A DNA stretch of 64,000 nucleotides, taken from assembly GCA_021790385.1 (NCBI GenBank), contig JAJYDW010000007.1, positions 10,483-74,482 on the forward strand. The letters run 5' to 3'. Under the pieces are notes generated by a model that had not been told where the DNA came from, made no database searches, and worked only from the letters and a program-made list of their open reading frames with translations. This stretch comes from Planctomycetota bacterium. Lineage in GTDB: Bacteria > Planctomycetota > Phycisphaerae > WQYP01. Position 1 is the stretch's first letter; each line of letters opens with the position of its first letter. The position numbers and the translations under genes were made by a program. This document shows, piece by piece, positions 30,050-55,100 of this stretch.

Positions 30050-30104
30050 TGGGATGGAGGGCGGATTGACACCACACGGCCACAAACAAGAATGTCTGTG
30101 TTAC
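30050..30104 (+). repeat. Intergenic repeat family, copy C (partial; core CACGGCCACAAACAAGAATGTCTGTGTTAC at 30075-30104). A TAAGCGGTCAGCG motif lies at 29957-29969.
   Basis: Seen in sequence, immediately upstream of the kpsF start. Confidence 0.45.
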
Positions 30105-30153
30105 CGCAGTGGCACACTGGCAAGGGTGCGTTGAATCGTATATCGTTAGCCCC

Positions 30154-31179: not shown

Positions 31180-31255
31180 ATCATGGTCGCCGCGTGATGG
31201 CCACCAGCGCAATAAGCAGCGACAAAAAAGGTCGATTGGAAGTACGGAGTTGCGG

Positions 31256-34965: not shown

Positions 34966-37900
34966 ATGGCGGACAAAAAGTCGGATTTACTTATGGCAAA
35001 ACCAGGATTGGTCTGGGTAACCATTGTTGCTTCAGGTTTGGCTTGCGGCGGCGGCGCGTCTGGCGTGCACGCGGCAACCACCACTGCTACCGCTATGGTC
35101 AAGGGCAGAGTTCAGCCCGCGACTGAAGCTCAACTGCGTTCTTCCGTGTCCTCCCCCCAAGACATTCCAGCCTCGGTGCAAACCATTGACCAATATATTC
35201 AGACCGTGGCCGGTTTTGGTCCCAACCGTTCCGCCGGCAGTGCCGGTGCGCAGCAGACTGGCAGGTTCTATATCAACAAGCTGGCCTCCGGCAGCGGTCG
35301 GCCGGTGTGGCGTCAACCATTTTCGATGGTGGTTCCACATACACAATATTGCCGGGCGGTGGATCCGCAACATCCAGCCATGCCCATAAAGCTATTTTTA
35401 ATGCGCCCTTGCGGTGGTCAAATTGCGGCATTGCCAAGTATGCAGAGTCATACTGCGCCGGTGGTATATGTGGGTCGCGGCCGCCTGCCGGATCTGCGAG
35501 GTCTTCACATTGCCCATGCCTGGGTGGCCATGAATATATCAGGCTCGCGCAACTGGCTGACCATCGCCGGGCTGGGTGCCCGTGGAATAATCTTCCTGGG
35601 TTCCGCGCAAGACAGCTTCACCTCTTTTGCTCCCACCGCCACGACCGTCCCGGTAACTATTCCGCGGTTTTATACCCAAAATCCCACGTTGGCAGCGGCC
35701 ATTCGCACCGGTAAAATCCGCAGCCTTAACATTCAATGGCGTGCTGAGTGGGTGCGCCGCATCGGCAATAATCTGCTGTGCCTGATTCCGCCGACCAATT
35801 CCGCCAAGAATGCGGCATCCGCTCCGTCAAAATCGCTGATTATTCTCACTGCCCGCTACGATGCTTCCAGCTATGTGTTGGGCCGCAGTCCCGGCGCGCA
35901 GCAGGACATGGGAGCCGCCGTTCTCGCGGCACTGGCTCCGCAAATCGCCCAGGCTCAACTGGGCCATCCCGTGCTTATTGCGCTGCTGGCTGACAATACC
36001 TGGCAGTTTACCGGCGAGCAGCAACTCCTTCGCATGCTCACGACTACGCCTGTCACACTGACATCGCGACTGGCTCGGCGCAGAATCGCCTACCACAAAG
36101 CCAGTCGTATGTTGACCCAATTGCGGGATATCGCCGCTACCAGAAATGTAAGCGATATACAACTTGGCTCGTCTCTGGCCCAGACCATCGGCAATCAGAT
36201 CCAGGCGGATGTCTCAAAATTACAGTCTGCCCTGGATATTCAGTTGCTCAAGCCCATCGTAGATCGCCACCACCAGGTGAAACTGCTGGAAAAACGCAAA
36301 CTTGATCTACTTTTCGCCCACAATGCCGTTCATACGCACCATCATCTGGCCGCGTCGCAGCAGGTTATTTTGCGTGCTGTTGAGCAACTGATACCACAGT
36401 GGCAGATGGAAGCCCGGCGGTCCCAAGAACGTGTGCACAAAGTCCAGGCGTGGCGCGCCATCCGCCGTAAATTAGGTCCGGACAAGCTGAAAATTCTGGT
36501 GCAGTTGAACCTGCATTTGACCAGCCATGGCCGGGAGTTCGGTTTTATTACCCATTCCTCCTGGATGACCAACGATTTCAGCAACGAGATGTCCCAGTTT
36601 GACAGCGCCATCACCCGTAATTATTTTGGCCAAGCCCGTCGCCATGCCAAAAAGATGGGGCTTCCTTTTCGTTGCGCCTTTAATCCGCTACCTGCGGAAT
36701 CAGTTGATTCCGTCCATAATTACTTTCCCATTCCCATGGGATTCTGCACCGATTATGCCTTGTGGCGGGGTCTGCCTGGCGGTACCTTTGCCACGCTTTG
36801 CGACGACAGCGGCCTGATTGATACGCCCAACGATACCACCAGCCGAATCGATTGGCAGTCCATAGCCCGGCAGGTGGCGGCCTTGAAGCTGCTGCTGCTG
36901 GGCAGTCAGCGTTACCATTCGCTCGGAGCGCTCACTGATCCTGATTTTTCCGGTCGTGTAACCCCGCATGATCAAACCAGCAATCAAACCTTTACCGTAC
37001 TCCGACGCAGCTTCGGCCAGGCGGTGGCATCACTGGGTGCCCCGAATTATCTGGCCGGGGCGGTTTTTATTAACGGCGGTGGTCCCTTGCCACCGGTGTT
37101 GGAGGGTACCCGCCGCAGCAGTTGGCAATTCACTCATTTCAATGGCTCAGTCCACCTTCATCATCTGCCCTACGGCTGGTTCCAGTACGAATTGCAGGTA
37201 TTTAAATTTGCCTCCGACGGCATGCCGAAAAGAGTACTCGCGGGCAACCTGGCGGCACAAGGTTATTCCGATGGATTATTCATACCCGACAGTTCCACCA
37301 CTCTCCAGTGTCTGGTCTTTAAAAGCCGTCCCATCAATCTTTACGGACTTTTTGACCCACGGTACCTCGATTATATCGATCAACTGCAGATTCTTGACGC
37401 CCGTAAGGGTGGCGCTCCCAAGTACGATCAAAGTTTCACTGCCGGGATGGCCGGAATCGCCTACGTGCAGCCGGGTGTACCCTGGCAACTGCTGGCCTCA
37501 CGTGGAGCCGTGGCCAACCGCATGATTCTCATCAACGCCTCGCGGGCGCACCCGCTGGGGACCGGCTTTCTCCACAATGGCGCGACCTATCTGGGCCCGC
37601 TCGCCTGGAGAACCGCCACTGATATGAACGCCATTGACACGCATCGCCGTGCGGTGCTGCAAAAGTTCGGCATCACCAGCAACGTCATCAATACTTTTTT
37701 TGAAGCCGCGAAAACGCATCTTCAAGCCGGCCAAAAAGCCCGCAATACCCAACATTACAACCGCTGGCTGGGTCAGGCCGCCGCCGCCTGGAGTCTGCAA
37801 ATCCAGGCTTACCACGCCCTGATCAGCGATTCCAATGGCATTGTTTATGGTGCTATTTTTCTGCTGCTGGGCCTGATTCCCTTCAGCTACTTTCTTGAAC

Positions 37901-39942
37901 GCCTGCTTATCGGTTCCCCCAATGTATACCGCCAGATTGGCGGATTTGCCTTTATTTTCGCCATCATGACCGCGGTGCTGGCCTCCTTCCATCCAGCCTT
38001 TCGCATCACCAAGGCCCCGCTGATGATCCTGTTAGCCTTTGTCATATTGCTTCTCTCCGCAGTGGTTATTCACATTCTGTTCCAAAGATTTGAAAATGAA
38101 CTCGGCAACATGCGCGGTGCCAGATCCAGTTCCCACAAAGATACCCTCCGCGGCAGTGCCGTCTTTGGGGCTGCCCTGCGGCTGGGCCTGTCCAATATGC
38201 GCCGCCGTGGCACCCGCACCACTCTTACCCTGATTACGCTGGTCCTGCTCACCTTCACCCTGCTTTGTTTTACCAGCTTGCGGCACAACCTGACCCTGGT
38301 GCCCAATACCGAACCCAATGCACCCAAGCATCCTGCCGTCGGCATTCTGTTGCGCCAGAGAGCCTGGCAGCCCATACCTGAAATTGGGCTACAACTAACC
38401 CGGGAAATCGTCGGCCGCAGAGGTATCGTTGCCCCTGTTTTCTGGTACGCCTCGACCAACCCGCAAAGCACCTGGCATATTGCCATCCGGCCTGCCAGAT
38501 TCTCTCCCATCCACACTTCCAGTCCCAACGTCAGTGGCCTGGTAGGCATTTCACCGCAGGCGGCCGCCTTCTTTAAATCGCCGGCCGCCAGTATTGCGTC
38601 ACAGTTGTCGGGATGGAAGAAGCTTCTGGCGGGACAACCTGTATGTTTTCTGCCCGCGAATTTCCACGGCCACCCTTTCCACCGCAATCAAAAGGTGCGG
38701 ATTCTGGGCCGCAGCCTGACGATTGCCGGGTTCTTTCACACGCGAAGCTTTATGGTAAGGCAAATCACCGGTGAACCCATCTTCCCCGTAGATGCCGCCG
38801 CCAGTGCCCAGGGCAGTCAAACGCCGGCCAATACGAGTCCCAGCCAGATTGCCGCCATGCGTGAGCCTAGCCTTACTTTTTTACGCCCCGCGGAGGTTGC
38901 CATACTACCCGCCGACATTGTCCGCAGTTTCGGAGGCCATTTCACCAGTGCCATGCTCTGGCCGCACGGTGCCACACCCCAAACCATCTTTCGCGAGGCT
39001 CGCCACCTGGCCCGGCGCTGCGCCTTCTCGGTCATCGCTTCCAATGGCCAGCGGGTGCTTTCGTATAACGCCACCGCCAGCGCCGGGGTCAACGATCTTT
39101 CCTCGGTATTGGTACCCCTGGCTATTGCGGCGGTGATTGTGCTCAACACCATGCTTGGCGCTGTATCCGAACGTACCCGCGAAATTCATGTGTACACATC
39201 GCTGGGGTTGGCCCCCAGTCACGTGGGAATGTTGTTTCTGGCCGAAGCCGCCGCACTCGGAACGCTGGGCGTGGTTTTCGGGTATATCTGCGGCCAGGCC
39301 GCAGCCACCCTGCTGACCTACACTCATCTAATTTCCGGAGTGCACCTCAATTATTCCTCCATGTCGGCCATCGGTACCATGGGCCTGGTCCTGGCGCTGG
39401 TCATGGCATCCACGATCTGGCCGGCGCGCATGGCATCGCGCGTGGCGGCACCGAGTCTGCAACGTCACTGGAAACTCCCCGAACCCGTCGGAGACATTTT
39501 AAAAGTAGATCTCCCCTTTACCGTCAATGCCGTCGCCGCCCACGGTATCTGCAAGTTTATTGAAGAATTCTTCAGTGACGTTTCTCAAAGCGGCGTGGGT
39601 CGCTTTACCGCCGAAAAAATCTCCGCTTTTACCCACCAAAGCATTCACGGAATTTCCGCCCAGGTGTGGCTGGCCCCCTACGATCTGGGGGTCATTCAAG
39701 ATTTCTGGCTGGCCATCCATCCGACGCCAGAACCCAACGTCTTTGAAGTTAAACTGACCCTGCGCCGCCAAGCCGGCAGTCCCGCCACCTGGCTCCGGCT
39801 TAACCGGCCATTTATGGTCGAGGTGCGAAAACAGTTTTTATTGTGGCGTTCCGTATCGCCGGAAATGGTGCATGAATACGTGACAGGCTCGGAACAGATG
39901 TTCGCGCACGCCGAGGAAACTTCGCCACCGGTTGCAGCATAA
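34966..39942 (+). CDS. Giant (1658 aa) fusion protein: signal peptide, then a PA domain plus a degenerate M28 peptidase-like ectodomain (about 35140-36000), then a linker, extra TM helices, and an FtsX/MacB-type 4-TM permease domain with a periplasmic loop (about 38100-39450), then a cytoplasmic tail of about 160 aa
   Basis: PA-like VVYVGRGRLPDLRGLHIAHAWVAMNISGSRNWLTIAGLGARGIIFL. M28-like NNLLCLIP...SLIILTARYDASS...GRSPGAQQDMGAAVLAALA...HPVLIALLADN, with the metal-binding D/E residues replaced (QQD, ADN). FtsX hallmark LGAVSERTREIHVYTSLGLAP and the TM1 motif RRRGTRTTLTLITLVLL. No Walker A anywhere in the protein. Confidence 0.75.
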   Translation: MADKKSDLLMAKPGLVWVTIVASGLACGGGASGVHAATTTATAMVKGRVQPATEAQLRSSVSSPQDIPASVQTIDQYIQTVAGFGPNRSAGSAGAQQTGRFYINKLASGSGRPVWRQPFSMVVPHTQYCRAVDPQHPAMPIKLFLMRPCGGQIAALPSMQSHTAPVVYVGRGRLPDLRGLHIAHAWVAMNISGSRNWLTIAGLGARGIIFLGSAQDSFTSFAPTATTVPVTIPRFYTQNPTLAAAIRTGKIRSLNIQWRAEWVRRIGNNLLCLIPPTNSAKNAASAPSKSLIILTARYDASSYVLGRSPGAQQDMGAAVLAALAPQIAQAQLGHPVLIALLADNTWQFTGEQQLLRMLTTTPVTLTSRLARRRIAYHKASRMLTQLRDIAATRNVSDIQLGSSLAQTIGNQIQADVSKLQSALDIQLLKPIVDRHHQVKLLEKRKLDLLFAHNAVHTHHHLAASQQVILRAVEQLIPQWQMEARRSQERVHKVQAWRAIRRKLGPDKLKILVQLNLHLTSHGREFGFITHSSWMTNDFSNEMSQFDSAITRNYFGQARRHAKKMGLPFRCAFNPLPAESVDSVHNYFPIPMGFCTDYALWRGLPGGTFATLCDDSGLIDTPNDTTSRIDWQSIARQVAALKLLLLGSQRYHSLGALTDPDFSGRVTPHDQTSNQTFTVLRRSFGQAVASLGAPNYLAGAVFINGGGPLPPVLEGTRRSSWQFTHFNGSVHLHHLPYGWFQYELQVFKFASDGMPKRVLAGNLAAQGYSDGLFIPDSSTTLQCLVFKSRPINLYGLFDPRYLDYIDQLQILDARKGGAPKYDQSFTAGMAGIAYVQPGVPWQLLASRGAVANRMILINASRAHPLGTGFLHNGATYLGPLAWRTATDMNAIDTHRRAVLQKFGITSNVINTFFEAAKTHLQAGQKARNTQHYNRWLGQAAAAWSLQIQAYHALISDSNGIVYGAIFLLLGLIPFSYFLERLLIGSPNVYRQIGGFAFIFAIMTAVLASFHPAFRITKAPLMILLAFVILLLSAVVIHILFQRFENELGNMRGARSSSHKDTLRGSAVFGAALRLGLSNMRRRGTRTTLTLITLVLLTFTLLCFTSLRHNLTLVPNTEPNAPKHPAVGILLRQRAWQPIPEIGLQLTREIVGRRGIVAPVFWYASTNPQSTWHIAIRPARFSPIHTSSPNVSGLVGISPQAAAFFKSPAASIASQLSGWKKLLAGQPVCFLPANFHGHPFHRNQKVRILGRSLTIAGFFHTRSFMVRQITGEPIFPVDAAASAQGSQTPANTSPSQIAAMREPSLTFLRPAEVAILPADIVRSFGGHFTSAMLWPHGATPQTIFREARHLARRCAFSVIASNGQRVLSYNATASAGVNDLSSVLVPLAIAAVIVLNTMLGAVSERTREIHVYTSLGLAPSHVGMLFLAEAAALGTLGVVFGYICGQAAATLLTYTHLISGVHLNYSSMSAIGTMGLVLALVMASTIWPARMASRVAAPSLQRHWKLPEPVGDILKVDLPFTVNAVAAHGICKFIEEFFSDVSQSGVGRFTAEKISAFTHQSIHGISAQVWLAPYDLGVIQDFWLAIHPTPEPNVFEVKLTLRRQAGSPATWLRLNRPFMVEVRKQFLLWRSVSPEMVHEYVTGSEQMFAHAEETSPPVAA

Positions 39943-39952
39943 GGCTTTTTTG

Positions 39953-41947
39953 ATGACGGAAGACAAGGAACTTGCCCAATACCGGTCGCTGATGGCTACG
40001 CCGTCGGTTTTTGCCGACGGCTTTAACCTTAAATCCGTCATTGGCTGCTTGTTCATCGGCCTGGTGATGATGCCCGGGTCAATGTATCTTGCACTGATGA
40101 CCGGCGGAGGCCTTGGCCCGGCCGCCCAATGGGTTACCACCATCCTCTTTATTGAACTGGCCCGCCGGTCGTTTACCAGCCTCAAAAGCCCGGAAATTTT
40201 TATCCTCTATTACATGGCCGGCGTGGCGGTGCTTTCTCCGTTCAGCAACCTGCTTTTCACGCAATATTATATTCAATCCAGTGCCGCGCAGGCCTTCGGC
40301 ATTTCCCATCTGATACCATCGTGGGTCGCACCAGGACCAAAAATTCTCGCCCAACGCACATTTTTTACCGGTGCCTGGGTTATTCCCATGGTTCTCATGG
40401 GTGTGACTTATCTGTTTTCCCGCCTGAACAATTTTGGTCTGGGGTACGTACTATACCGCGTTACCAGCGACGTTGAAAAATTGCCTTTTCCCATGGCACC
40501 CATCGGAGCGATGGGCATTACCGCCCTGGCCGAAAGCTCCAGCGGCAACGAAACCTGGCGATGGCGGGTTTTTTCCATCGGCGGCATGATCGGCCTGGTG
40601 TATGGGGCACTTTGGCTGGGTGTCCCGGCCATCACCGGCACCTTTCTCCAGAAGCCCATCCAACCCATTCCGTTGGTCTTCGCCGATTTCACGCAATACA
40701 CCCAGAGCTTTCTCCCCGGCGTGCCCATGGCAGTGAGTTTTGACATCACCAATGTGATGGTCGGATTTGTTTTGCCATTTTCCGCGGTGCTCGGTACGAC
40801 CATTGCCACCATTGCGACCTGGCTGGCCACACCGCTGCTGGTCCATTGGCATCAAATTCCCGACTGGAAGCCAGGTATGGATGCGGTGAACACCTCCTGG
40901 GTGGGGTATATCGACGTTTACATGAGCGTTGGCATCGGCTTGGCGGTGGCCATCGCCCTGATCGGTTTTTTTCATATTTTTTCGACCATACGCCGCCGCG
41001 GGAAAAGCAGCGAGATGTTGTCTCCTGCCAGCGACAAGGATACCTCCAGCCCATCTGCATGGCAGCGGCTGATACATCCTCCGGCGGGCCGCGGCGATTT
41101 TTCCCTCTGGATCGGCATAGGCATTTACCTTGCCAGCACGATCACTTCTACGGTGCTATGTAAGATGCTGGTGCCCACCTTTCCCCTGTGGCTGCTGCTG
41201 GCGTACGGTTTTGGTTATACGCCCGTGATGAGCTACGTAGCCTCGCGTATGGAAGGCATTGCCGGCCAGTGGGTGGATATTCCGATGGTTCAGCAAGCCA
41301 CTTTTGTGCTGGCGCATAAATTCGGCTACAACGGCGTGGGAATCTGGTTTGCCCCCATACCCCTCAATAATTTCGCGGGCCAGGTGGTTAGCTTCCGCAC
41401 CCAGGAACTCACCGGAACCAAAATATCCAGTGTGGTCAAGGCTGAACTGGTCATGTTCCCCGTGGTCATTATCAGCAGCATTATCTTTTCCCAGTACCTG
41501 TGGCGCATCGCGCCTATTCCCTCGCCCGCGTACCCCTTCGCCAATCAAATCTGGACTCTGACCGCCAAACAGATGGCCTTGTATCAATCGGCCACGCTCC
41601 CCGGTGGAAATTCCATGTTCATGGATGCCATCAAGTGGCCTTATATTTTCGGGGCGGTCATCGGCGGCATTGGGCTTTATGCCGTCTTGGCGAGATTCGG
41701 GGCGCCGGTTATGCTCTGTTATGGACTGGTACGCGGCCTGGGTGCGGGGTTGGCTCCATGGGTGTTTCCGCAATTGCTTGGAGCTCTCCTGGGTAGATAC
41801 TATTTTCAAAAGAAAATTGGCGTGACGAAATGGCGGCAGTATGCGCCGGTACTGGCGGCCGGATTTGCCTGTGGAATCGGACTCATCAGTATGTTGTCGT
41901 TTGGATTTGATTTGGTCAGCAAGGCCGTGTTTCAGTTGCCGTATTAG
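39953..41947 (+). CDS. Polytopic integral membrane protein (about 665 aa, at least 12 predicted TM segments), uncharacterised; paralog of the next gene
   Basis: Start overlaps the stop of the giant gene (translationally coupled). Hydrophobic throughout. C-terminal LLGRYYFQKKIG...APVLAAGFACGIGLISM resembles LLKAVILRWGGVELYKKARPFFFGLIIGEAIANVFWM of the next ORF. Confidence 0.6.
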   Translation: MTEDKELAQYRSLMATPSVFADGFNLKSVIGCLFIGLVMMPGSMYLALMTGGGLGPAAQWVTTILFIELARRSFTSLKSPEIFILYYMAGVAVLSPFSNLLFTQYYIQSSAAQAFGISHLIPSWVAPGPKILAQRTFFTGAWVIPMVLMGVTYLFSRLNNFGLGYVLYRVTSDVEKLPFPMAPIGAMGITALAESSSGNETWRWRVFSIGGMIGLVYGALWLGVPAITGTFLQKPIQPIPLVFADFTQYTQSFLPGVPMAVSFDITNVMVGFVLPFSAVLGTTIATIATWLATPLLVHWHQIPDWKPGMDAVNTSWVGYIDVYMSVGIGLAVAIALIGFFHIFSTIRRRGKSSEMLSPASDKDTSSPSAWQRLIHPPAGRGDFSLWIGIGIYLASTITSTVLCKMLVPTFPLWLLLAYGFGYTPVMSYVASRMEGIAGQWVDIPMVQQATFVLAHKFGYNGVGIWFAPIPLNNFAGQVVSFRTQELTGTKISSVVKAELVMFPVVIISSIIFSQYLWRIAPIPSPAYPFANQIWTLTAKQMALYQSATLPGGNSMFMDAIKWPYIFGAVIGGIGLYAVLARFGAPVMLCYGLVRGLGAGLAPWVFPQLLGALLGRYYFQKKIGVTKWRQYAPVLAAGFACGIGLISMLSFGFDLVSKAVFQLPY

Positions 41948-41965
41948 CCGGAAGCCCGCACCGCC

Positions 41966-44005
41966 GTGACCATTCGATGGACCGTTTTTGGATGTAAGAT
42001 CCGCATGAGTAAGATGCCTCAATCGCCGAATCTCGGCACCGATAAAATTACGTACAGTGTTACATTTCGCAGCGCCCTGCTGGGCATCGGACTGACCCTG
42101 CTGGTGGCCATTTTTACCCCTTTCAATGACTACGTAATGCAAAACACCTATTTCGTGGGTAACAATCTACCCATGTCGGTTATTTTCTGTATTTTGCTAT
42201 TGTCACTCGTAGTGAACCCGCTGCTGGGTTCCCGCCGATTCCGCCGGGGTGAAATGATCGTGGCTTTCAGCATGATGCTCATCGCCTGCGCTCTGCCCAG
42301 TTCCGGACTATATCGCTACCTATATTCCACACTGGCTGATTCCGTCTACCAGGCAGGCCAAAATTCTTCCTTCATCCCATTTGTCCATGCCCTGCCATCC
42401 TGGATGCTGGCCTCCAAAAATCCGCATAGCTGGGTGTTACGGGACTTTTACCTTGGCTTTAGCAGTCATTCCCGCCATTCTTATTGGGATGTACTCCAAG
42501 CCTGGGCTTTGCCAGTAGTAACCTGGGCCTGTTTCCTGCTGGGCATGTTTGGTGCCATCATTTTTTTCTGCCTGATCATGCGCAAACAATGGGTTCAGCG
42601 CGAACGTCTGCCCTACCCTCTGGCCACGATTCCCCTGGAATTATTAGCGGATCCGGAACCGGGCCGACGCATCAATGCACTGTGGCGTTCGCCGCTGCTT
42701 TGGATTGCCGCCGGCCTTGTTTTTCTCATTGATATTTATAACGGATCGCTTCTCTTCCCGATTTTTCATAATCTGCCCCCCATTCCCACCACTTATAATC
42801 TGTCCAAAGATTTTTCCCAGTTTCCATGGAATGCCATTCTTTGGGCGATTCAACGCAATCGCATTTATTTTTCCGTAGTCGGTGTAACCTTTTTCATCCC
42901 GCTGGAAATTTCATTTTCAATATGGTTTTTCTTTCTGGCCTACAATTTCGGTTATGTTTTTCTCGTGGACAGCGGTTCCAATGCCAATCTCTCCACCATG
43001 ACCATCTGGCAAACGCCGGGCATGTATGCCGCTTATTTCATCATCACCTTGTGGATTGTCCGCCGGCATATTCGCGAAGTGTTCATATCCACCATTCGCT
43101 TCCTACCGCGACAACCGGATGAGTTTTTACCCTATTGGATCAGCGTCTGGGGATTTTTGCTTTGCGTGGCCATAGCCACAGCATTTCTCGCCTTTGCCGG
43201 ATTAAACTGGTGGTGCGGTCTGCTGGTGGTGGCTTTACTACTGTTTTACTGCATGATGCTTACCCGCGTTATTGCCGAAGCCGGCCTTTTAATGGTGGAC
43301 TTCTCCAGCGGGCCATTTCACGCCCTGACACTGCTGTTTTCCTCCAATCCGTCCGCTCTTTCCATCCGCCAGTGGATGGTGGCCCGCTTGAGCATCTCCA
43401 ACCTTTGGACTGATCAGCGGGAAAACCTCATGCCCTTCGCTTCCGATGTGCTGCGCATGGGTTCTGACGTTCAACCCTACCGCAAAGTCCGTTACGTAAC
43501 CCTGCTGTTTGGAGCCTTGGTCCTGTGTTTTGTCGTGGCCGGGACAACAAACCTGCTGCTGAGTTATAAGTATGGTGCCAGCACTTTCAATGGCTATAGT
43601 GCCGTCGGTTTTCCATACAACACCGTGGAAAGTGCCATCCACGCAGCACAGCCCAACACCGCTTCCACCTCGCCGATGACTCATCTGCTGTACGTTATCG
43701 AAGGCGCAGTGGCCATGACCGCGGTTGCCGGATCGCGGCTCCTTTTCGCCGACAGCCCCTTCCACCCTATCGCGCTGCTGTTCCTCAACAGCTACGCCAT
43801 GGACGTGTTCTGGTTTTCCGTTTTCATCGGCTGGTTGCTTAAAGCGGTGATCTTGCGCTGGGGTGGCGTAGAGCTTTATAAAAAGGCCCGCCCCTTTTTC
43901 TTCGGCCTGATCATTGGCGAAGCCATCGCTAACGTCTTCTGGATGTTCATCGGATTTTTCGTGGGCTGGCCGTCTGGAATTCCGTTCTGGCTTCTCCCCG
44001 GATAA
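41966..44005 (+). CDS. Polytopic integral membrane protein (about 670 aa), uncharacterised; paralog of the preceding gene
   Basis: ORF-track start is GTG at 41966; an ATG alternative is at about 42005. Many TM helices. Starts 19 nt after the preceding stop. Confidence 0.6.
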   Translation: MTIRWTVFGCKIRMSKMPQSPNLGTDKITYSVTFRSALLGIGLTLLVAIFTPFNDYVMQNTYFVGNNLPMSVIFCILLLSLVVNPLLGSRRFRRGEMIVAFSMMLIACALPSSGLYRYLYSTLADSVYQAGQNSSFIPFVHALPSWMLASKNPHSWVLRDFYLGFSSHSRHSYWDVLQAWALPVVTWACFLLGMFGAIIFFCLIMRKQWVQRERLPYPLATIPLELLADPEPGRRINALWRSPLLWIAAGLVFLIDIYNGSLLFPIFHNLPPIPTTYNLSKDFSQFPWNAILWAIQRNRIYFSVVGVTFFIPLEISFSIWFFFLAYNFGYVFLVDSGSNANLSTMTIWQTPGMYAAYFIITLWIVRRHIREVFISTIRFLPRQPDEFLPYWISVWGFLLCVAIATAFLAFAGLNWWCGLLVVALLLFYCMMLTRVIAEAGLLMVDFSSGPFHALTLLFSSNPSALSIRQWMVARLSISNLWTDQRENLMPFASDVLRMGSDVQPYRKVRYVTLLFGALVLCFVVAGTTNLLLSYKYGASTFNGYSAVGFPYNTVESAIHAAQPNTASTSPMTHLLYVIEGAVAMTAVAGSRLLFADSPFHPIALLFLNSYAMDVFWFSVFIGWLLKAVILRWGGVELYKKARPFFFGLIIGEAIANVFWMFIGFFVGWPSGIPFWLLPG

Positions 44006-45619: not shown

Positions 45620-45888
45620 TGGAATGAAGGCTTCCCAAAACGGGGCATGCTCATGCCGACCGTTGAAGATTTATCGCGATGGATCGTTGTATTGTTCCCC
45701 TCCGGCCGTGAGGCCGGGGAAGGATGCAGGGTAAGCCTTGCGCCTACTGCCGCAACGATTTCCAGTCAGACCGACATCAAATCGAGCAAAGAGGTGCTTA
45801 TGTGACTGTGCGGATAATTTAGCTCAATGGAAAGGTCCGTTTTCCACGTTTTTACATTTCTCCCGTGTGGAGAGAATTGGAGTTTATC

Positions 45889-46797
45889 ATGAGTAACTTA
45901 CGAAACAAATGTATCGCCATGGCCGTTGGTACCGGTATGCTCGGTGGCATTGCCACCGCTGGAGCCACGGAAATTCCGGCCGGAAACCTGTTTTATCAAA
46001 ATGGGGCCGCCACGGCACCGAATGTATCAACCGTTATCAATAATCCCCAAAATATGAGCGGCGGGTCTTGGGTTGGCGGGACCAATTACTGGGTTGGCGG
46101 TAACAGTCCGGTGCTGGACGGCAGCGTTTCCACAATATGGAACGCCGGCACATTTAGCGGCGGCGGTATGTGCAATGTCGCCATCTCACAGGGTTCGTAC
46201 GATAGCAGCACCTCAACTTTTACATCGGTACCGTTTGGCGCTATCGCAACGATACGTATCTGGGCGGAAAATTATATCAATAGCGACGGCAGCACATGGA
46301 GTTCGATGCCCCAAGTGGTCGCGGTAGGATATACCACCAACAGCAACCTCACTTCGACCATTCGCAACGGCTACTCATTCAATAGCGGCACGGCGGGTAC
46401 CCTGCCGCCAACTTGGAGCACCATGGCCACGATTTCTTCTGTCAATGGCGGCACACCGGGCACACCTTTCGATCCGACGGATTACCCGACCGCTTCGGGT
46501 TGGGTGGCCGGGGATTTTTCGCAAGGCACGGTTACCGGTTTAAATAGTGGACACAGCACGCTGGCCTACATGGATCTGACTGTGAATATTCCCGCTGGTG
46601 CTACCAGTGTCATGATCTCGTTTGGACAGGACAGCGGCATCGCCACTGCACCCAGCCCCAGCTATTACAGCCCCGGCGGCCTGGCAATTGCCGATATCCA
46701 GGCCTATGCTCCGACCATTCCCGAACCCGCTTCGTTGGGTCTATTGGCCTTTGGCGGTCTGGGGCTGTTGTTGCTCAAGCGTCGTAAAACGGCTTGA
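45889..46797 (+). CDS. PEP-CTERM sorting-domain secreted protein (third copy in the window)
   Basis: Signal peptide MSNLRNKCIAMAVGTGMLGGIATAGA. C-terminal PTIPEPASLGLLAFGGLGLLLLKRRKTA. Confidence 0.75.
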   Translation: MSNLRNKCIAMAVGTGMLGGIATAGATEIPAGNLFYQNGAATAPNVSTVINNPQNMSGGSWVGGTNYWVGGNSPVLDGSVSTIWNAGTFSGGGMCNVAISQGSYDSSTSTFTSVPFGAIATIRIWAENYINSDGSTWSSMPQVVAVGYTTNSNLTSTIRNGYSFNSGTAGTLPPTWSTMATISSVNGGTPGTPFDPTDYPTASGWVAGDFSQGTVTGLNSGHSTLAYMDLTVNIPAGATSVMISFGQDSGIATAPSPSYYSPGGLAIADIQAYAPTIPEPASLGLLAFGGLGLLLLKRRKTA

Positions 46798-46874: not shown

Positions 46875-47864
46875 ATGAATCCGATAAAGCGACGACAAAC
46901 TAAGGAGTTTGCATTCAGTTCTACGGCTGCCCATTTTTGGGGGTCAATGCACGATCGCAGACCCAGAGCATTTACCCTGGTGGAACTGCTGGTGGTCATT
47001 TCCATCATTGCCATTCTTATCTCCTTGCTGCTTCCCGCCCTGGCCAAGGCCCGCTTTTGGGCCAACGTGACGGTATGCGCCAACAACCAGCGGCAGATTT
47101 ACCTGGCCACCGCCATGTACGCCAACGACAATCTGGGGTTCATGCCGGGCTGTGATGCCTTTCAAAGCGTGAGTGGGGGAACCTACGCCACATCCTACGG
47201 CGGCTATCCGTGGGAATTTCAGGATTATTGGTACAGCAATCCCATCTTACCTTCAGGCGTGGTGTGGTCGCAAACAGTACGCTGGTACGGGGTGGGAGTT
47301 TTGATTGGTCAAAAGTACATGCCCCCCACCAATGCCGTGGAATGTCCGGATTTTGCCATTTCACCACAAGCCCAGATCGGCCAGAAATGGAGCAACTACA
47401 CGCAAAATGGCGTGTTTCTGCTGCCGAAGGAATACAACACCGCAGCCGCCGCCGGCGACAGCCCCGAACAGATCGCCAACGCCTGCTTCGGACAAGGCTC
47501 TTACGTGCTTGATACCGAACCGTATTACAACACCTTTGATCCCGGCAATGAATCCCATGGCCGTATCGGACTGCCCGGCACCGAGGGTGGATGGTGGTCG
47601 CCGGGCGGATTGCTCAAAGTGCCGCACATTACTGCGCTGATTATGTGTCTCACGACCTATGCTGATATCAACCCGCAACCGGCGACCATCACGCACGAGA
47701 TGAAGGGCGTCAACTGTACGTATATTGACGGGCACACCCAGTGGCTGCCCATCCACGCGGCGACTTGGAGTTATTTCAATTCCATCGGTTTCCCCGCCAG
47801 TTCCGGCGGCGACATGCGCGGTGCCTATACCTTTTTCCCGTGGGCCACGCAGCAAGGATGGTAA
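46875..47864 (+). CDS. Prepilin-type N-terminal methylation domain protein of the DUF1559 (H-X9-DG) family, second copy
   Basis: RBS AAAGGAG then [30 protein letters not shown]-terminal [13 protein letters not shown]9-DG. Confidence 0.8.
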
Positions 47865-48103: not shown

Positions 48104-51100
48104 TTGTCCAGCGACAACCGCCCCAATCGCCGCAGTTTTATCAAAACCATGGGCTTGGCCGCCGCCGCGCTGACAGTGGATGCCGCAAGTGGGCGCGGGG
48201 CCAAATTGAACTTTGACCATTTGCCGAAGTTTGCCTCCGGCACGCCGGAATACCCCACACCCTTTCTGGCCATCGCCAGAACCCCGAATCTGATTGCCGC
48301 GCCCCAGGGCGGCGGCATGAATATTGAAAGTGATGTCGGATTTTTATCCGGCTTTTCCGGATTTGTGGACAAGACCACCGGACGCTTCGGCTATCCCGGC
48401 TACAACAATTACACCAACGCCAATTTCTCCTTTGATAACGACAAGCTCGTCATCGTAGCCCATGTGCCTTATCCCGTGATCGGCGATCTGCACCAAGACG
48501 ACACCTTTGAAGTGCTTATTCAACCCCGCGGGCCGCACTCCACCGGATTTGTTTATCGCGTCACCGGCAACGCCTTCGGCCGGTGGCATGCAGATCTTGA
48601 CGAACCGATCATCGGCCAATTTCATCAACCCTGGCATTCCCTCATCCACTATGGTGCCATGCTCTGGAATCCGTCCGGCCTGTGGATGGCCAGCGTGGCT
48701 ATCCCCTGGAAATCGTTGGGAGGCCGGCCCGCCAATGGGGCCGTATGGGGTGTGCAGTTTGCACTGCGTTATCGCCAGCCCACCATCGTCGCTTATCTAA
48801 GCCCCACCGATAAATTCACCGACACCAGGCGTTTCGCCCGCATTCGCTTCGATTTCAACCGCCGCATCAATTACCGTCCCCATTGGCTCAGTGAAGAAAT
48901 GGACACCGGCCACTTTATGGTGCAGTATCTGCTGGCCAACGGCGGCACCAAGCCGGCCACCGTGGAAATGAAAGTGGCCCTCTACAAAGCCGGCCACGAA
49001 TTTGCCCATGCCCAGCTCGAAAAAACCGCACCGCCAGGCTCCACCTATTGGGCAGATAACACCGGCACCAACATGATTTCTCTAAATTCTGAACCTGCCA
49101 CACCTGCCCAGCGCAACACCGTGGCCCATCTGACTGCCTATGACCGCACTAAAAATGCTCTTATCTATGATCAATGGGTGCCTTATTGGCAATTCAAACC
49201 CGGCGAAAATGACTGGATTAAACAGCGCCTGGCGCGACAATTCAGCTTTAACATCGGGCCATATCCATCCATGGGTCTGATCGACTATGCCGTGGATGCA
49301 CGCTCCCTCAAGGAAGTGACACCCACCGCGACCGAGTTTACCTGCGCGGTTCTCGCCGACGGAAAACCCGTCTTGCACCAACGCCGACCGCTGCCTGCCG
49401 ACGGACAAATTACCGGCAGCGTCAATCTGGGTGCCTTTACGGATCGCGTTACCTACGATCTGCAGGCCGACATTCGCGACTCCGAAGGCACCGTGCTCAA
49501 CCAGCGCAGCCGGTCGTTTACCCGTCGTGTGATGCCTTTTGAAAAGGCGCCTCCGGCCGGCGTCGGTGATCATGTATTCCCGCCGTTCACCCCGCCGCGA
49601 ATTCACGGCACCGCTGTTTCCTGCCTGCTTCGCACCTACGTGCATGGCACCAACGGCCTGCTGGAGCAGATCTTCGCCGCCGAACGCAACTTACTCATTC
49701 GCCCCGCCGCTTTTACCGTCGTGCTCGATAACTGGCAGTCTCTGGTATTAACCGCAGGCAGTCCCCACTTGCTACCCCATGGTCTAGGCTCCGTCGATTA
49801 CACCCAGACCTTTCAGGGCGGCGGTGTGGAACTGCTTTTGCACGGAAATTTAGATTACGACGGCTTTTACCATTTTACCGCCACGCTTAGTCCGCAAAGC
49901 CGGCCGGTCACCATTCGTGAATTGCGTTTGCAAATTCCCCTAAGCCCAGCGCATGCTACACTTATTGATGCGGCCGTCACGTGGATGTACCCTGGCTGGG
50001 AAAAGGCACTGGGTTTTTTAAGCCACGGGCACGGCCGAATCTGGGATTCCCACACCCTGCCCATGCAAATGAACAATCGCGTCAGCAATATGCCTCCTTA
50101 TATCTGGGTTGGCGATGACGATCGCGGACTATGCTATTCCTGCCCCTCCGATGAAGGCACACATAACACTCCCGATTTACCTGCTGCGGCATTGGACCGT
50201 GCTGACAACGCTGTCACCTTAAGCATTTGGATGGTCAATCGCACATTGCATCTTGAAAAGCCCCGCCGCTTTCAGTTTGCCCTCCAGGCCAGCCCCTTTA
50301 AGCCGGTAGCCGCCAATGGACGGTTGTGGCGCGATCAGACTACCGCCGCTGCCACTTATAAAAATGGCCTGACCTTCACCGACTTTTGGGATCCGGCATC
50401 CTATCCTACCTATGGCCGCTGGCTGACCCTGGATTATCTCAAAAAACAGGTCGCCGTCGACGGCTGCGACCGCACCGGCCTCGAAGCCTCCGCTCTTTCC
50501 GAATGCGCCGGAACTCCCGAATATCGCCAGTTCTATTACGAATGGGGCAGTGCGATGGACGAATATCAGCAAGTCGTTCCACCCGTCCCCGCCGGGATTC
50601 TCCCACGCTTCAAAGCCAGTGGGGTACGGGCAAATCCATTCGTGATGATCGAAGCTTTTTCCAACACCACCAAAACCAACCGCGATTATCGCGCATGGTG
50701 GCTCTCCGAGGCAGCCAAACACGCTGGCGTCTCATTTGTGTACCAGGACAATCCTACCTGGGTTTTCGCCGACCGCCCTCAGCCGGAATATGGGTATAAA
50801 CGCCCGGATAGCGGCATTGAACCCACCAGCATGATTTGGAAGTCCCGTGATGTTCTCAAACGGTTCTTTCAGGCCGTGGCCGAAGCCGGCCAACCTTCCC
50901 AGCCAGGAATCTGGCCCAACATGATTACCCCGGCAGCGCCTGGCCGATCTTTCTGTGGTAAAGCCCTGGATGGGGAATATACTGATTCTAATAACCTGCG
51001 TATGGGAATGATGCGCGTGCATCTATCCAAACAGTGGGGGTTTGTAGTCGACTGGCTTTGCCAGCCGCCGGCCAGTGCCGGAGCTCAAATTGGCACCACT

Positions 51101-52111
51101 CGCGATTACTGGCGAGCCTTGTTCAGCCAGCTTTGTCTTCTGGATGTTACCAATTTTTCTCGACCGGACACCGCCGAAATCTATAGGCTCTGGTGGAATG
51201 CCCTGGATGTATTCTGGCTCGACGACCCGAGTGTGCACTGGCATCCGTATTACCGCAATCCCACTTTGGCCCAGGCTGAACCTGCCGACACCATCCTGGT
51301 TTCCACCTACACTGCTACCGGACGTTTATTGGCAATCGTTTCCAACTGCGGCCATCAGGACGCCATTGCCACGGTTCGGTTTAAGGATCTGGCTGCATGG
51401 GAGGCCGCTGGTCTGACCCATTTTTATGATGCCGAAACTGCGGAAGAAATCTCGGTTAAAAACGGTCAGTTGCGACTGTTTGTGGCCCGGAAAAATTACC
51501 GCCTGATCATTGGTTTCCGGGGACCGTGGAAGTTTGCCGCTAAAAACCGCCTCCCCCATCCCAACCAAATCCTCACCAACTCGTCCCTGGACCCGCAGGC
51601 CACCATTGGGGAAATTTGTCGCCATCTTCTGACCGCACGCACCCTGCCACCCATGCAGCATGCAGACCAGTTACTGCTGCAATGGGCACAGGAGATTCTC
51701 AAGGAACTTCCCGCAAGTTCTCCGGATATTGCTTATTTTGACGCCAAGGCCATGGCCGACATCCACCTCGGTAACCTGGAAGTTCGTTGTTCCGTGTTCG
51801 TTAACCGTCGCAGTGGTTTCATGCTGGTCGGCTTTTATAACGGCACTGACCAGCACCGGGTGCTTAGTCCCCGGATTTATGACCAGATTGCCGCCAAAGT
51901 CGGCAAACCGGGTTACAATTTTATTTATGATGCCATCGGCGGTCAGTCGGAATGGTCGGAAATTGATCTTCCCGCGCATAGTGGGCGCTGGGAGGTGGCC
52001 TATCAGGATGATCCCGATTACTACGGTGCCCGCCGCGGCGTTTTCAAAATCGGCACGTTGATGTCCAACATCCTGACGGCAGTTGAGGAAAATAAAAAGA
52101 CTCTGCAGTAA
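48104..52111 (+). CDS. Giant (1335 aa) Tat-signal exported protein with an N-terminal CBM9-like (DOMON-like) carbohydrate-binding module and a large domain of unknown function; putative novel CAZyme, paralog of the next gene
   Basis: Twin-arginine signal NRRSFIKTMGLAAAALTVDAAS. CBM9-like segment DNDKLVIVAHVPYPVIGDLHQDDTFEVLIQP...WGVQFALRY. Shares the VSFVYQDNPTWVF / MNGYWWDNGTFWT block with the 52167 gene. The ORF-track start is TTG; an in-frame ATG a few codons upstream is possible. Confidence 0.65.
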   Translation: MSSDNRPNRRSFIKTMGLAAAALTVDAASGRGAKLNFDHLPKFASGTPEYPTPFLAIARTPNLIAAPQGGGMNIESDVGFLSGFSGFVDKTTGRFGYPGYNNYTNANFSFDNDKLVIVAHVPYPVIGDLHQDDTFEVLIQPRGPHSTGFVYRVTGNAFGRWHADLDEPIIGQFHQPWHSLIHYGAMLWNPSGLWMASVAIPWKSLGGRPANGAVWGVQFALRYRQPTIVAYLSPTDKFTDTRRFARIRFDFNRRINYRPHWLSEEMDTGHFMVQYLLANGGTKPATVEMKVALYKAGHEFAHAQLEKTAPPGSTYWADNTGTNMISLNSEPATPAQRNTVAHLTAYDRTKNALIYDQWVPYWQFKPGENDWIKQRLARQFSFNIGPYPSMGLIDYAVDARSLKEVTPTATEFTCAVLADGKPVLHQRRPLPADGQITGSVNLGAFTDRVTYDLQADIRDSEGTVLNQRSRSFTRRVMPFEKAPPAGVGDHVFPPFTPPRIHGTAVSCLLRTYVHGTNGLLEQIFAAERNLLIRPAAFTVVLDNWQSLVLTAGSPHLLPHGLGSVDYTQTFQGGGVELLLHGNLDYDGFYHFTATLSPQSRPVTIRELRLQIPLSPAHATLIDAAVTWMYPGWEKALGFLSHGHGRIWDSHTLPMQMNNRVSNMPPYIWVGDDDRGLCYSCPSDEGTHNTPDLPAAALDRADNAVTLSIWMVNRTLHLEKPRRFQFALQASPFKPVAANGRLWRDQTTAAATYKNGLTFTDFWDPASYPTYGRWLTLDYLKKQVAVDGCDRTGLEASALSECAGTPEYRQFYYEWGSAMDEYQQVVPPVPAGILPRFKASGVRANPFVMIEAFSNTTKTNRDYRAWWLSEAAKHAGVSFVYQDNPTWVFADRPQPEYGYKRPDSGIEPTSMIWKSRDVLKRFFQAVAEAGQPSQPGIWPNMITPAAPGRSFCGKALDGEYTDSNNLRMGMMRVHLSKQWGFVVDWLCQPPASAGAQIGTTRDYWRALFSQLCLLDVTNFSRPDTAEIYRLWWNALDVFWLDDPSVHWHPYYRNPTLAQAEPADTILVSTYTATGRLLAIVSNCGHQDAIATVRFKDLAAWEAAGLTHFYDAETAEEISVKNGQLRLFVARKNYRLIIGFRGPWKFAAKNRLPHPNQILTNSSLDPQATIGEICRHLLTARTLPPMQHADQLLLQWAQEILKELPASSPDIAYFDAKAMADIHLGNLEVRCSVFVNRRSGFMLVGFYNGTDQHRVLSPRIYDQIAAKVGKPGYNFIYDAIGGQSEWSEIDLPAHSGRWEVAYQDDPDYYGARRGVFKIGTLMSNILTAVEENKKTLQ

Positions 52112-52166
52112 CTTTTACCGGATATGGTTTATTGCTTCCTTCACTTTTTTACAACAAGGATTCGTT

Positions 52167-55100
52167 ATGAAACACTCTAGCGTTAGCATCCCAATCCTCA
52201 TCCCGGAAAACCCGTACACGCCGCGATCCGTTTTACTGCTGTGCTTAGCCTTATTGAGCGCACTGGTTTTGGTGGTAAACCCATGCACTACCGCCGCGGC
52301 CCCGGCCAACCCCATCCCCAAACTGCCTCTGCTGCGCATACCGGAACTGACCACCCCCCCCGTGATTACCGGTCGCATCAGCCCCGATCATGTAACCGGA
52401 CAATGGGTGCATGCTGCTCGCCTGACCGGCCTTCAAAATTTCGGCATGGGTACGCTGCCCCCATCCAAACTCCAACCCACCTGGTGGCTGGCGTACGATA
52501 AAACTCATCTGTATCTGGCTTCTTACTTTCCCGCGTATCCAAAAGGTACCATCGTTGCTCAGGTCAAACACGGCGATGAGGGTGGTCTAAACCCGCATGC
52601 CGGTGATATTCTCGGCGATGACCACGTTGAAATACAAATTTGTGATCTGCCCAAACGATCCGAAGCCGTCACCAAGTATTTTTACAAGATCATGACCAAT
52701 CCTTATGCCGCGGTGGTGGATCAACGTATTGAGTGGTCGGTTGGCTGGATGGGTTATGAATGGCAATCAGGTGCTATCGTCAAGTGCCATACCACCAGAA
52801 ATGGCTGGTCCATGGAAATGGCCGTTCCCCTGAAAAGCATGAATCATCTGGTGGCTCCACCCAACAACACTCAATGGTTTATACAATTGGCCGATGCTAA
52901 CGGTGAATCTCCATATTACGCCTGGCAGCCGGTGCTGTTTACCGATTGGGATCACATGGGATCCATCGTGTTTGATTCCCACGCACCTGTGTTTCAACTG
53001 CTGAGCCTGGGCCATGTCCAGCATGGGCAGATGGATGTACAAGCCGCCATCAACGTGCCCCACGGACAACCACCCGTACAAATGCGGGTACGCGTGCTGG
53101 GTGCCGGCGGAAAGATATTATTCGTCCGCACCCGATCCGTGCCGGCCAACGGAAAGCCCACCGCACTGCGTTTTCACAAAAACGGACTGCCTGTAGGTGG
53201 CCACGGCCAGACCATGGATATTCTGGCCTGGCAAGGCCACAAAATCATCTATCGCGACTCCATGCCGTTTGACACTATCACCGCCGCCGATCTCAAAAAC
53301 ATGTACACCGCTATTGCCGCCAATCGGCACAACCTCGGCCAGCCCAATCTTTCCTCCTGTTATTATCAGTCTTATCATACGCTCACGGCGCGCTGTGATG
53401 TGAATATTCTCGAAATCAATCCTACGATCCGCACGGCTAAAATTCTTCGTGCCAGTATTGTACGTGTTGGCCATAAAAAGCCACTGGTCAGTGCTGATGG
53501 CGTTATCCAGCCGGATGGCCTGGGACGAATTCAAGTTTCCACGGGCAAATTGCCGCTCGGCAAATATCAGGTTATCACGCAGATCATAGGAAACCGCGGT
53601 CAGGTACTCGCGTCACGCATCGATCCCTTCGCAGTCAAACACTTCCCATGGGAGCACAACAAGCTCGGTGAAGAGCACATCGTTGCGGCTCCGTTCACAC
53701 CGGTGAAAGTGCTGGGATCTACGCTGCATGTCTGGGATCGGGCTTATCATTTCGCAGCAACAGCATTACCGAGTTCCATTATCAGCCTGGGCCGGAACAT
53801 GCTTGCCGCTCCCATCACTCTCACCGGAACTATTGATGGCAAAAAAATTCCGCTGGTAAGTATCGGCCGACCTGCCTGGACGCACGTTTCCGGCTACAGT
53901 GCCACCGTAACCGGTCATGGCCAGATAGGCCCTCACGTGCATGTTACCATTAAGGCCAAAACCGAATATGACGGTACCACGTTTTACACTCTAACCCTTA
54001 CGCCTCATGGCTTGGCCAAGATAAACGAATTATCCATGGTCATTCCCCTGCATAAACTCATGAACTGGGAGGCCATGCGCAGCAGTGGACGCGATATGCC
54101 CTATGGTACCATTGGTGAGGGCACGCCGGATGGCGTATTCTGGAAATCCTCCGAACTGCCTGCCGCAGCATTTATTCACGACACCTTCCTGCCCTACTGC
54201 GTGATTTCCGACGGTCAGCGAGCTTTGTCCTGGGCGGCAGATTCAGATCAAGGCTGGATGGTGAGTAACCACCGGGCATCTTTTCTGCTGGAGAAGCACG
54301 CCAACCGTCAAATCTGGATGCACGTGCGGTTTGTCGATACGCCATCGGTCCTCAAAACTGCCCATACCATTCACTTCATGCTCACCGCCATGCCCATGAA
54401 ACCCAAGCCCGCAGATTGGCGCTATCGCATGTGGGGCATGCCTAACGCCGCCTTTGGCTACATGTCTGGTTGGCAAGGCAGCAACATGTGGGCTTATGGT
54501 TGCGGCCCCACTATCAGCTTTAGAAATCAGAATCAATTCGAAATCCTACGCCATTTACTTTCCGCCGATCGCCAAAGGGTGCGGCTGGCCGCCGAAAGCG
54601 TGCCCGGGCCCAAGTATCCGCCCATGAGCATGTGGTACGTTTCCGCCAACACCTGGGGCTACGCCATGCCTGAATACCCCACTTACAGCGGAGAATGGAC
54701 CGGCATGACCCATCCTCCCATTAATCCACAGCGCAGCTACATCAATTTCAAAAGTCCCTTCGGTGTCTGGAGCACCGCTCGCGAACAAACCCGCGGCGGC
54801 ATGGACCTTATTCAATCCGCCATCGACTGCCGCGTCTACGACTTTGACCAAGAGCAGAAAAAGGCCGGCATGAACGGCTACTGGTGGGATAACGGCACTT
54901 TCTGGACTTCCGGCAACCTTATCAAGGGCACCGCTTACATCCGCAACGGCCATATCCAGGGCATTTATAACATCACCCTGATGCGCCAGATGCTCAAGCG
55001 CATGGCAGTGGTTTCACAACTCAACCACATCACCCCCTTCCAAAGCATGTATGCCCATGGAGAAATTGGTCCTCTGGCTGGTTTTGTTAACTGGCTCTGG

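Follow-up and report, generated by a model that had tools for sequence, protein, structure and literature searches.

The stretch of DNA analyzed here (64,000 nucleotides (nt) of contig JAJYDW010000007.1 from a Planctomycetota bacterium; hereafter the window) carries a gene for a giant permease of the FtsX/MacB type, followed on the same strand by two genes for polytopic membrane proteins of almost equal length, which we call A and B (Table 1). An earlier, sequence-only reading had picked out two plus-strand membrane open reading frames (ORFs) of ~670 amino acids (aa) behind the FtsX gene, and their lengths, coordinates and hydrophobicity were borne out. The mechanical ORF listing gives 671 and 679 codons before start-site choice, a Kyte-Doolittle scan finds 9–11 strongly hydrophobic 19-mers in the proteins, and their structural models are almost all-helical. 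Homologues were retrieved for both (>3900 for A and, by word search, 42 for B), and we regard A and B as real genes.

The same reading described the two genes as translationally coupled to the giant gene, with A overlapping its stop codon and B following after 19 nt. The giant gene ends with the TAA at 39940–39942, and the start candidates for A are TTG 39932, the sole overlapping start, and ATG 39953, which sits 10 nt past the stop. In a 28-member alignment the family-conserved N-terminus, MxEDxELxEYR (D4, E6 and R11 invariant), starts at ATG 39953, and TTG 39932 is left without support. Translational coupling by overlap was rejected because this conserved N-terminus begins after the giant-gene stop. 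For B, the candidates are GTG 41966 (18 nt after the A stop) and ATG 42005, which leaves a 57-nt gap; because a 92%-identical homologue is 666 aa long, the start was set at ATG 42005. With these two starts, coupling is unsupported. Membership of the giant gene, A and B in one operon is plausible given the short gaps and a promoter/terminator scan in which no intergenic terminator of the gene string rose above background. Further upstream, 6 nt separate the LptC/LptA-like gene from the giant start codon, and a promoter-like site (30066–30093) in front of the kdsD-like gene scores no better than background.

Family and fold of proteins A and B

Protein A of the window matches no Pfam or NCBIfam model; those of the oligopeptide/yellow-stripe (OPT) transporter superfamily (PF03169, TIGR00728/TIGR00733) are among the models without a match, in Pfam even at E-values as high as 1. 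Its relatives fare better. The A homologues are ~50% identical between phyla, many have precomputed PF03169 hits, and public records label them 'peptide transporter' or 'OPT/YSL family transporter', for example, labels that are annotation only. PF03169 is matched by 5 of the 28 aligned family members (best E 1e-16), and six of eight more distant relatives of 615–640 aa pass it at 29–64 bits (threshold 25.8). A profile of the A family searched against 1.84 billion representatives found 1133 proteins at E<=1e-3, of which 446 reach E<=1e-30. Mean column identity is 61% for the A family versus 39% for the B family. A appears to be a member of a strongly conserved family that borders on Pfam OPT. 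Some A-family representatives reach 811–1083 aa, with a large insertion near profile position ~545 in some of them; the insertions contain PDZ domains (P0243) or a Reg_prop beta-propeller repeat (P0236).

Protein B is covered end to end by two Pfam families, PF20581 DUF6785 (residues 20–524, 1.8e-99, 334 bits, cut-off 25) followed by PF20580 DUF6784 (residues 563–654, 1.4e-25, 89.8 bits, cut-off 26.4). It thus passes both thresholds in the expected order, while A matches neither model and lies outside the family, which is without functional annotation. The B proteins encoded beside the giant gene in Desulfobacterota match the two models better still (E 1e-137 to 1e-174), and public entries name B relatives 'DUF6785 family protein'. 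Window B has no OPT match in Pfam (E up to 1) and nothing in NCBIfam, and no paper on DUF6785 or DUF6784 was found in the literature searched.

Searches of the Protein Data Bank (PDB) with the sequences and family profiles of A and B gave no matches; fold comparison alone succeeded. The AlphaFold2 model of A has a predicted local distance difference test (pLDDT) score of 76 and a predicted template-modelling (pTM) score of 0.74, and that of B scores 89 and 0.90. Foldseek aligned the A model with barley Yellow Stripe 1 (HvYS1, 7wst_A; E 1.4e-10, probability 1.00, template-modelling scores 0.57/0.61) and the B model with the same protein (E 1.2e-8, probability 1.00, scores 0.63/0.69). HvYS1 (7wst/7wsr) is the sole significant PDB match for either model and is matched over the full length, with all others at a probability of <=0.35. 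The fold search proposed earlier therefore assigns both predicted models to one fold, that of the OPT/YSL transporters, and by the B model the DUF6785/DUF6784 family is predicted to share it. The earlier statement that the two proteins lack a recognizable transporter signature is true by eye, but both models carry the OPT/YSL fold.

A and B resemble the OPT/YSL family (PF03169; TC 2.A.67) in overall fold and in size (~650–700 aa), and sister proteins of A pass PF03169, although the window proteins themselves fall below every OPT model in Pfam and NCBIfam. HvYS1 is a proton-coupled, elevator-type transporter composed of a 'YS core' and a scaffold domain, and works as a two-protomer homodimer joined through the scaffold, with a Cys250–Cys671 pair and strand S1 as dimer determinants (PMC9691689). 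The present locus differs in pairing two distinct members of the family and linking them to an ATP-binding cassette (ABC) system, an arrangement undescribed for OPT proteins.

The two proteins had also been called tandem paralogues with a similar C-terminal block. Aligned directly, A and B give one marginal BLASTP match (E=0.012, 26% identity over 106 residues), centered on a shared motif with the consensus E-[KR]-L-P-[FY]-P. S172, D173, E175, L177, P178, F179, P180 and A182 of the A motif are invariant in 28 A-family sequences; in 31 B-family sequences, E200 and P205 of the B motif are invariant and L202 is nearly so. Family profiles built from these 28 and 31 sequences were compared with hhalign. 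Over the whole length the probability is 76% (E=2.4e-5, score 51.6), versus scores of 30.1 for a reversed B profile and 22.7–28.4 for six block-shuffled profiles, and with a low maximum-accuracy (MAC) threshold A 14–663 is collinear with B 9–665. The signal lies in the N-terminal thirds (probability 90.8%, E=1.2e-6); neither the middle third (E=0.12) nor the C-terminal third (~120 residues, E=0.18) is significant, and a shared C-terminal block was rejected on the latter value. Pairwise similarity is therefore marginal by BLASTP and, by profile comparison, significant in the N-terminal third only. Because profile–profile similarity and a shared fold coincide, A and B are better described as remote homologues than as recent paralogues. 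What stands of the paralogue claim is remote homology, a common fold and one N-terminal region of similarity; judging from the models, the proteins would represent two branches of the OPT superfamily that parted long ago.

Conserved linkage to a giant permease gene

Relatives of A are encoded in at least 596 species-representative genomes, and the best 80 loci were searched by tblastn with the window proteins. Of the 49 A-anchored genome loci with enough upstream sequence, 45 have a giant-gene homologue no more than 10 kilobases (kb) upstream of A. Among Desulfobacterota-type loci, the giant homologue is present in 41 of the 45 that have at least 7.5 kb upstream, and a B homologue stands immediately upstream of A in 56 of the 58 with two-sided sequence. 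The Planctomycetota genome loci anchored on A carry the giant gene in 4/4 cases and B in 3/5, there downstream of A. Gene order is giant-B-A in the Desulfobacterota type and giant-A-B in Planctomycetota, including the window. A separate look-up of metagenome loci found giant-A in Phycisphaerae (L001, L003 and L010) and Brocadiia (L005) and giant-A-B in L009. Besides the window, B adjoins A in four Planctomycetota loci.

Rearranged clusters extend this pattern. Locus L093 reads B-giant-A-sFtsX-ATPase-PqqD, where sFtsX is a small FtsX protein, and L118 reads PqqD-sFtsX-ATPase-B-giant-A; L113 is like L118 except that its contig ends after the giant gene. B is found in all three and also in the rearranged cluster L137. 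Co-localization of the giant gene, A and B thus extends to distant lineages, with exceptions: L039 and L044 have A without the giant gene or B, and L070 and L079 have B-A with no giant gene in the retrieved sequence. At L017, the intervening genes encode a PEP-CTERM protein and a spermidine-synthase-like protein and are uninformative.

Because the gene set is kept through four orders in two phyla, selection on the linkage, rather than inherited order, is the better explanation for its persistence. The proposal that A and B are functional partners of the FtsX-fusion protein is accordingly strongly supported by a neighborhood conserved across Planctomycetota and Desulfobacterota in rearranged orders. 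We refer to the giant gene, A and B, with the accessory genes described below, as the module.

The giant permease and its neighbors

In its predicted layout, the giant protein begins with one transmembrane (TM) helix (TM1, residues 8–26), followed by a ~930-aa periplasmic region, TM2–4 (959–1039) and TM5 (1087–1105). A MacB-like periplasmic core, TM6–8 (1381–1484) and a conserved cytoplasmic tail of ~170 aa complete the chain. The long periplasmic region combines a PA domain with a degenerate domain resembling M28 peptidases, nicastrin and the transferrin receptor. Profile searches of the PDB match the N-terminal side to aminopeptidase 2ek8 (1.5e-17), the transferrin receptor (2.6e-6) and nicastrin (1e-4), and the C-terminal module to MacB (5lil, 6.8e-14), YtrF and LolC. 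A word-based search returned 10 relatives of the giant protein, and its homologues carry PA, M28 and MacB_PCD domains.

Public entries call the giant homologues 'FtsX-like permease' and, in some RefSeq/NCBI records, 'M28 family peptidase'. An active M28 peptidase was rejected: both the histidine of the 'AHxDS' motif (AR/FYDxS in the family) and the 'EE' pair are replaced, and neither is kept across homologues. Since the M28 metal and catalytic positions lack conservation, the domain is probably non-catalytic, a pseudo-enzyme like nicastrin or the transferrin receptor, and the peptidase name is probably misleading. EnvC contains an inactive LytM domain, which the degenerate enzyme-like ectodomain of the giant protein recalls.

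The cytoplasmic tail has an invariant W-L-x-P-x-D-x-G-x-x-Q followed by invariant R, G, W, F and R, and has neither a Pfam match nor a relative in the PDB profile search. Two PADLOC models reach into it: PDLC01991 ('CARF_m8--CARF_LolE_TM') matches giant residues 962–1543 (E 5e-39, 132 bits), and PDLC01990 ('CARF_m8--CARF_Beta-galactosidase_LolE_TM', 1791 positions) matches residues 1301–1544 (2.5e-26). These models describe related large LolE-like membrane proteins catalogued in a CARF-domain census, but the match covers only the TM part and the start of the tail of the giant protein. From this match, the tail might be a divergent CARF-like sensor domain; no literature on CARF_m8 was found. 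PADLOC gave no match for A, B, the LptC/LptA-like protein or the Desulfobacterota accessory proteins. A defense role was rejected as the leading interpretation in view of the housekeeping context, the vertical-looking conservation and the lack of a PADLOC match for A and B, and it is unlikely despite the match of the giant protein.

Type VII ABC permeases act by mechanotransmission and typically work without passage of a substrate through the membrane, and YbbP is a single-chain, pseudo-symmetric member (PMC12646458). With its FtsX/MacB TM modules and MacB-like core, the giant protein resembles the permeases of this class (MacAB-TolC, LolCDE, FtsEX-EnvC, YbbAP-TesA, BceAB), and like YbbP it joins two pseudo-symmetric FtsX modules in a single chain. 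It differs in having 8 rather than 10 TM helices, an insertion of ~930 aa with PA and M28-like domains and the conserved cytoplasmic tail. The proteins encoded with it differ as well, namely two with the OPT fold, an additional small FtsX protein and one resembling PqqD. To our knowledge, no characterized type VII ABC system has OPT-fold partners. No adaptor or outer-membrane partner for the giant permease was identified. Like the duplicated orphan permeases of the ADOP family (TIGR03434), the giant protein has duplicated FtsX parts and, in Planctomycetota, no adjacent ATPase gene, but it scores 21 bits against a cut-off of 622 and is not a member.

In Desulfobacterota, the clusters include an ATPase of the LolD/MacB/YbbA/DarD type (72–87% identical among loci), a small FtsX protein of 216–238 aa and a PqqD-like protein, that is, an RRE-type peptide chaperone (28–42 bits versus a Pfam threshold of 23.4). 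Downstream of A lie genes for a ~200-aa signal-peptide protein, a ~295-aa protein without family and the PqqD-like protein, a trio seen in about 36–41 Desulfobacterota loci (for example L092 18577–20452 and L029 13680–14012). Locus L093 has a second ATPase.

Upstream of the giant gene in the window, the 1048-aa protein starts with a TM helix and an LptC-like segment, for which NCBIfam LptC gives 1.4e-5 without reaching its cut-off. Its C-terminal segment is LptA/LptD_N-like, and the ~880 residues between the two have no family match and no sequence relative in the PDB. Judging from its two ends, it may be an unusually long Lpt-type bridge through the periplasm, made of a single chain. It is shared with the Phycisphaerae loci L001, L003, L010 and L012 and is absent from the Brocadiia, Planctomycetales and Desulfobacterota loci, and its membership in the module is uncertain. 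Downstream of B, the convergent gene encodes a UDG-superfamily protein whose UDG domain spans residues 175–332 only, the N-terminal ~174 aa having no assignment.

Table 1. Positions of the genes and sequence features of the window; E-values are given after the family matched.
Feature	Position	Strand	Remarks
Giant FtsX/MacB-type permease, 1658 aa	34966–39942	+	Pfam FtsX 1.3e-12
PA+M28-like ectodomain of giant protein	35083–36060		giant residues ~40–365
Cytoplasmic tail of giant protein	39442–39939		giant residues ~1493–1658
Protein A, 664 aa, putative divergent OPT-superfamily polytopic membrane protein	39953–41947	+	conserved ATG start
Motif SDVEKLPFPMA, A residues 172–182	40466–40498	+	core of the sole detectable A–B similarity region
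Protein B, 666 aa, DUF6785+DUF6784 polytopic membrane protein	42005–44005	+	Pfam; start from 666-aa homologue
Motif ERLPYPLA, B residues 200–207	42602–42625	+	counterpart of the A motif (BLASTP, hhalign)
kdsD-like gene (SIS+CBS)	30109–31179	+	Pfam SIS and CBS; heads the same-strand gene string
kdsC	31250–31756	+	NCBIfam KdsC family 4.6e-51
LptC/LptA-like protein, 1048 aa	31813–34959	+	Pfam LptC 1.5e-5, LptD_N 1.2e-4
UDG-superfamily protein, 356 aa	44030–45100	-	convergent with B; stop codons 24 nt apart
PEP-CTERM protein	45865–46797		
Prepilin-type N-terminal domain protein	46875–47864		
Two tandem >1200-aa proteins	48104–55727	+	each with a weak GH123_N-like segment
Weakly GH31/melibiase-like protein	55774–57816		after the GH123_N-like pair
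GH95-like protein	57830–60409		after the GH31/melibiase-like protein

Weighing the proposed module

We consider it very probable that A and B share the OPT fold and that the module has A, if not both, as a dedicated component. The fuller reading, in which A and B together are dedicated parts of an envelope module with a giant type VII ABC permease at its center, seems to us evenly balanced between right and wrong. In the mechanism that we propose, the giant permease would turn ATP hydrolysis into periplasmic movement, itself having no transmembrane substrate path, and the OPT-fold proteins A and B would supply that path, probably as an A–B hetero-oligomer like the HvYS1 homodimer. The PA/pseudo-M28 and MacB-core domains of the giant protein would capture the substrate, present it or hand it over, or expel it on the periplasmic side. 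For the permease of the window, a LolD-type ATPase would be supplied from elsewhere in the genome.

The sequence-only reading had suggested that A and B form a heterodimer and contribute a missing channel. Because HvYS1 is a homodimer and type VII permeases have no substrate path of their own, this idea is reasonable by analogy. The substrate would most likely be a peptide or peptide-like molecule, given the OPT fold, the PqqD-like chaperone, the PA/M28-like ectodomain and the PDZ inserts in the A family. We infer the physical complex, the heterodimer, the direction of transport and the substrate. A further step would make the giant protein, the ATPase and the A–B heterodimer one machine. Its ABC part, a mechanotransducer whose ectodomain is a pseudo-peptidase resembling nicastrin and the transferrin receptor, would gate, load or unload an elevator-type secondary transporter; this we consider possible but doubtful. 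Such a hybrid machine would possibly be regulated through the conserved tail, if that is CARF-like, and the PqqD-like chaperone.

Several observations weigh against the fuller reading, and the first of them concern B. In Planctomycetota loci L001, L003, L005, L010 and L015, B is not adjacent to A. When loci are anchored on B, the giant gene or A appears in 7/80 metagenome loci, and just one of the 21 with at least 5 kb on both sides carries the module; four B homologues (L006, L007, L008 and L011) have unrelated neighbors. Co-occurrence with the giant gene, which had been suggested as a check, is strong from A's side (45/49) and weaker from B's. A neighbor-joining (NJ) tree intersperses linked and unlinked B genes, and window B groups with L009, which is linked, and then with L011, which stands alone. 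DUF6785 is evidently a broad family able to work without the module. The link of B to the module is tight in Desulfobacterota, facultative or absent in Planctomycetota, and looser than that of A. Separately, tandem DUF6785 pairs occur at 8/80 B-anchored loci (L108, L111, L125, L133, L139, L144, L145 and L166; four are among the 21 well-flanked loci) with no A or giant homologue, which suggests that pairing of two OPT-fold genes is recurrent in the DUF6785 family.

These observations could mean that A alone is a true part of the module and that B is an independent DUF6785 transporter, a passenger in the window. That window B clusters with stand-alone B proteins of the Planctomycetota type and not with the linked Desulfobacterota clade fits such an account, as do the five Planctomycetota loci without an adjacent B, the near absence of the module from well-flanked B loci and the lower conservation of B relative to A. 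Chance insertion is implausible, however, at the frequency with which B stands beside A in Desulfobacterota-type loci, and B recurs both in the four differently ordered clusters and in four further Planctomycetota loci. We judge the passenger account improbable.

The window itself supplies a second set of objections to the fuller reading. No ABC ATPase is encoded in its 64 kb (tblastn E<0.01; Pfam of large ORFs), and the small FtsX and PqqD-like genes are absent from it as well, as are the ~200-aa and ~295-aa accessory genes of Desulfobacterota. The giant permease is an 'orphan' in cis in this lineage. Because the giant Planctomycetota proteins retain the invariant ER..E....G.AP coupling-helix motif between TM6 and TM7, an ATPase encoded elsewhere in the genome is to be expected. 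The lack of an ATPase in cis would also suit A and B as autonomous proton-coupled OPT importers, for example of oligopeptides, that are co-transcribed with the ABC system because they serve the same pathway, such as the import of products made or set free in the periplasm, without forming a complex with it or with each other. All characterized OPT/YSL proteins work alone as secondary transporters, DUF6785 genes are usually found without the module, and L039 and L044 contain A by itself. Such autonomy accords poorly with the tightness of the A–giant linkage, which survives repeated rearrangement of gene order, and with two different OPT-fold genes lying side by side in nearly all Desulfobacterota-type loci. 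Additionally, A is unusually conserved between phyla, as would befit a subunit with many contacts. We hold autonomous import to be a tentative alternative, of appreciable probability but well short of even.

The nature of the substrate is a third point on which the proposed module can be challenged. The case for a peptide consists of domain-family associations alone, and the M28-like domain is without catalytic residues. The Phycisphaerae neighbors (kdsD, kdsC and the LptC/LptA-like gene) would point to a glycolipid instead. The cargo of the module might then be a glycolipid or lipid of the envelope. Some lipid-linked molecule would be flipped or presented by A and B, extracted from the inner membrane by the type VII permease and, in Phycisphaerae, passed on to the 1048-aa LptC/LptA-like bridge. 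The string kdsD-kdsC-LptC/A-like-giant-A, with gaps of 6 to 10 nt and the same order in L001, L003, L010 and L012, agrees with this route. There are precedents within type VII, since LolCDE and YbbAP pull hydrophobic molecules out of the membrane (PMC12646458). On the other side, the LptC/LptA-like neighbor is confined to Phycisphaerae, whereas Desulfobacterota carry a PqqD-like peptide chaperone instead, and the kdsC-lptC-lptA adjacency is ancestral and may merely mark an operon boundary. Moreover, we know of no OPT-family member that moves lipids. Taken together, a glycolipid or lipid substrate appears highly improbable.

A module of a giant FtsX/M28 permease with OPT-type proteins was not found described in the literature searched. 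Each component family is of a known kind, and the novelty lies in two points: the conserved association in which a giant type VII ABC permease is accompanied by two proteins of the OPT fold, and the fold predicted for DUF6785/DUF6784. That family gains a predicted fold (OPT/YSL) and, for part of its members, a genomic partner, and a large, very conserved family of 'peptide transporters' is placed at the edge of OPT. The module is present in cultured Desulfobacterota, among them Halodesulfovibrio aestuarii, Desulfatibacillum alkenivorans, Desulfacinum hydrothermale and Desulfogranum marinum. Because these organisms are genetically accessible or at least growable, the hypothesis is directly testable.

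Type VII ABC systems are viewed as mechanotransducers, and the partners with which they act, among them MacA-TolC, LolA, EnvC and TesA, are periplasmic. If the proposed module is real, a pair of proteins with the fold of a secondary transporter would be a new kind of partner for such a system and would explain how a substrate crosses the inner membrane in it. If, beyond that, the giant permease, its ATPase and the A–B pair do form a single hybrid machine, it would represent a new architectural class of bacterial envelope transporter, present in >590 species-level genomes.

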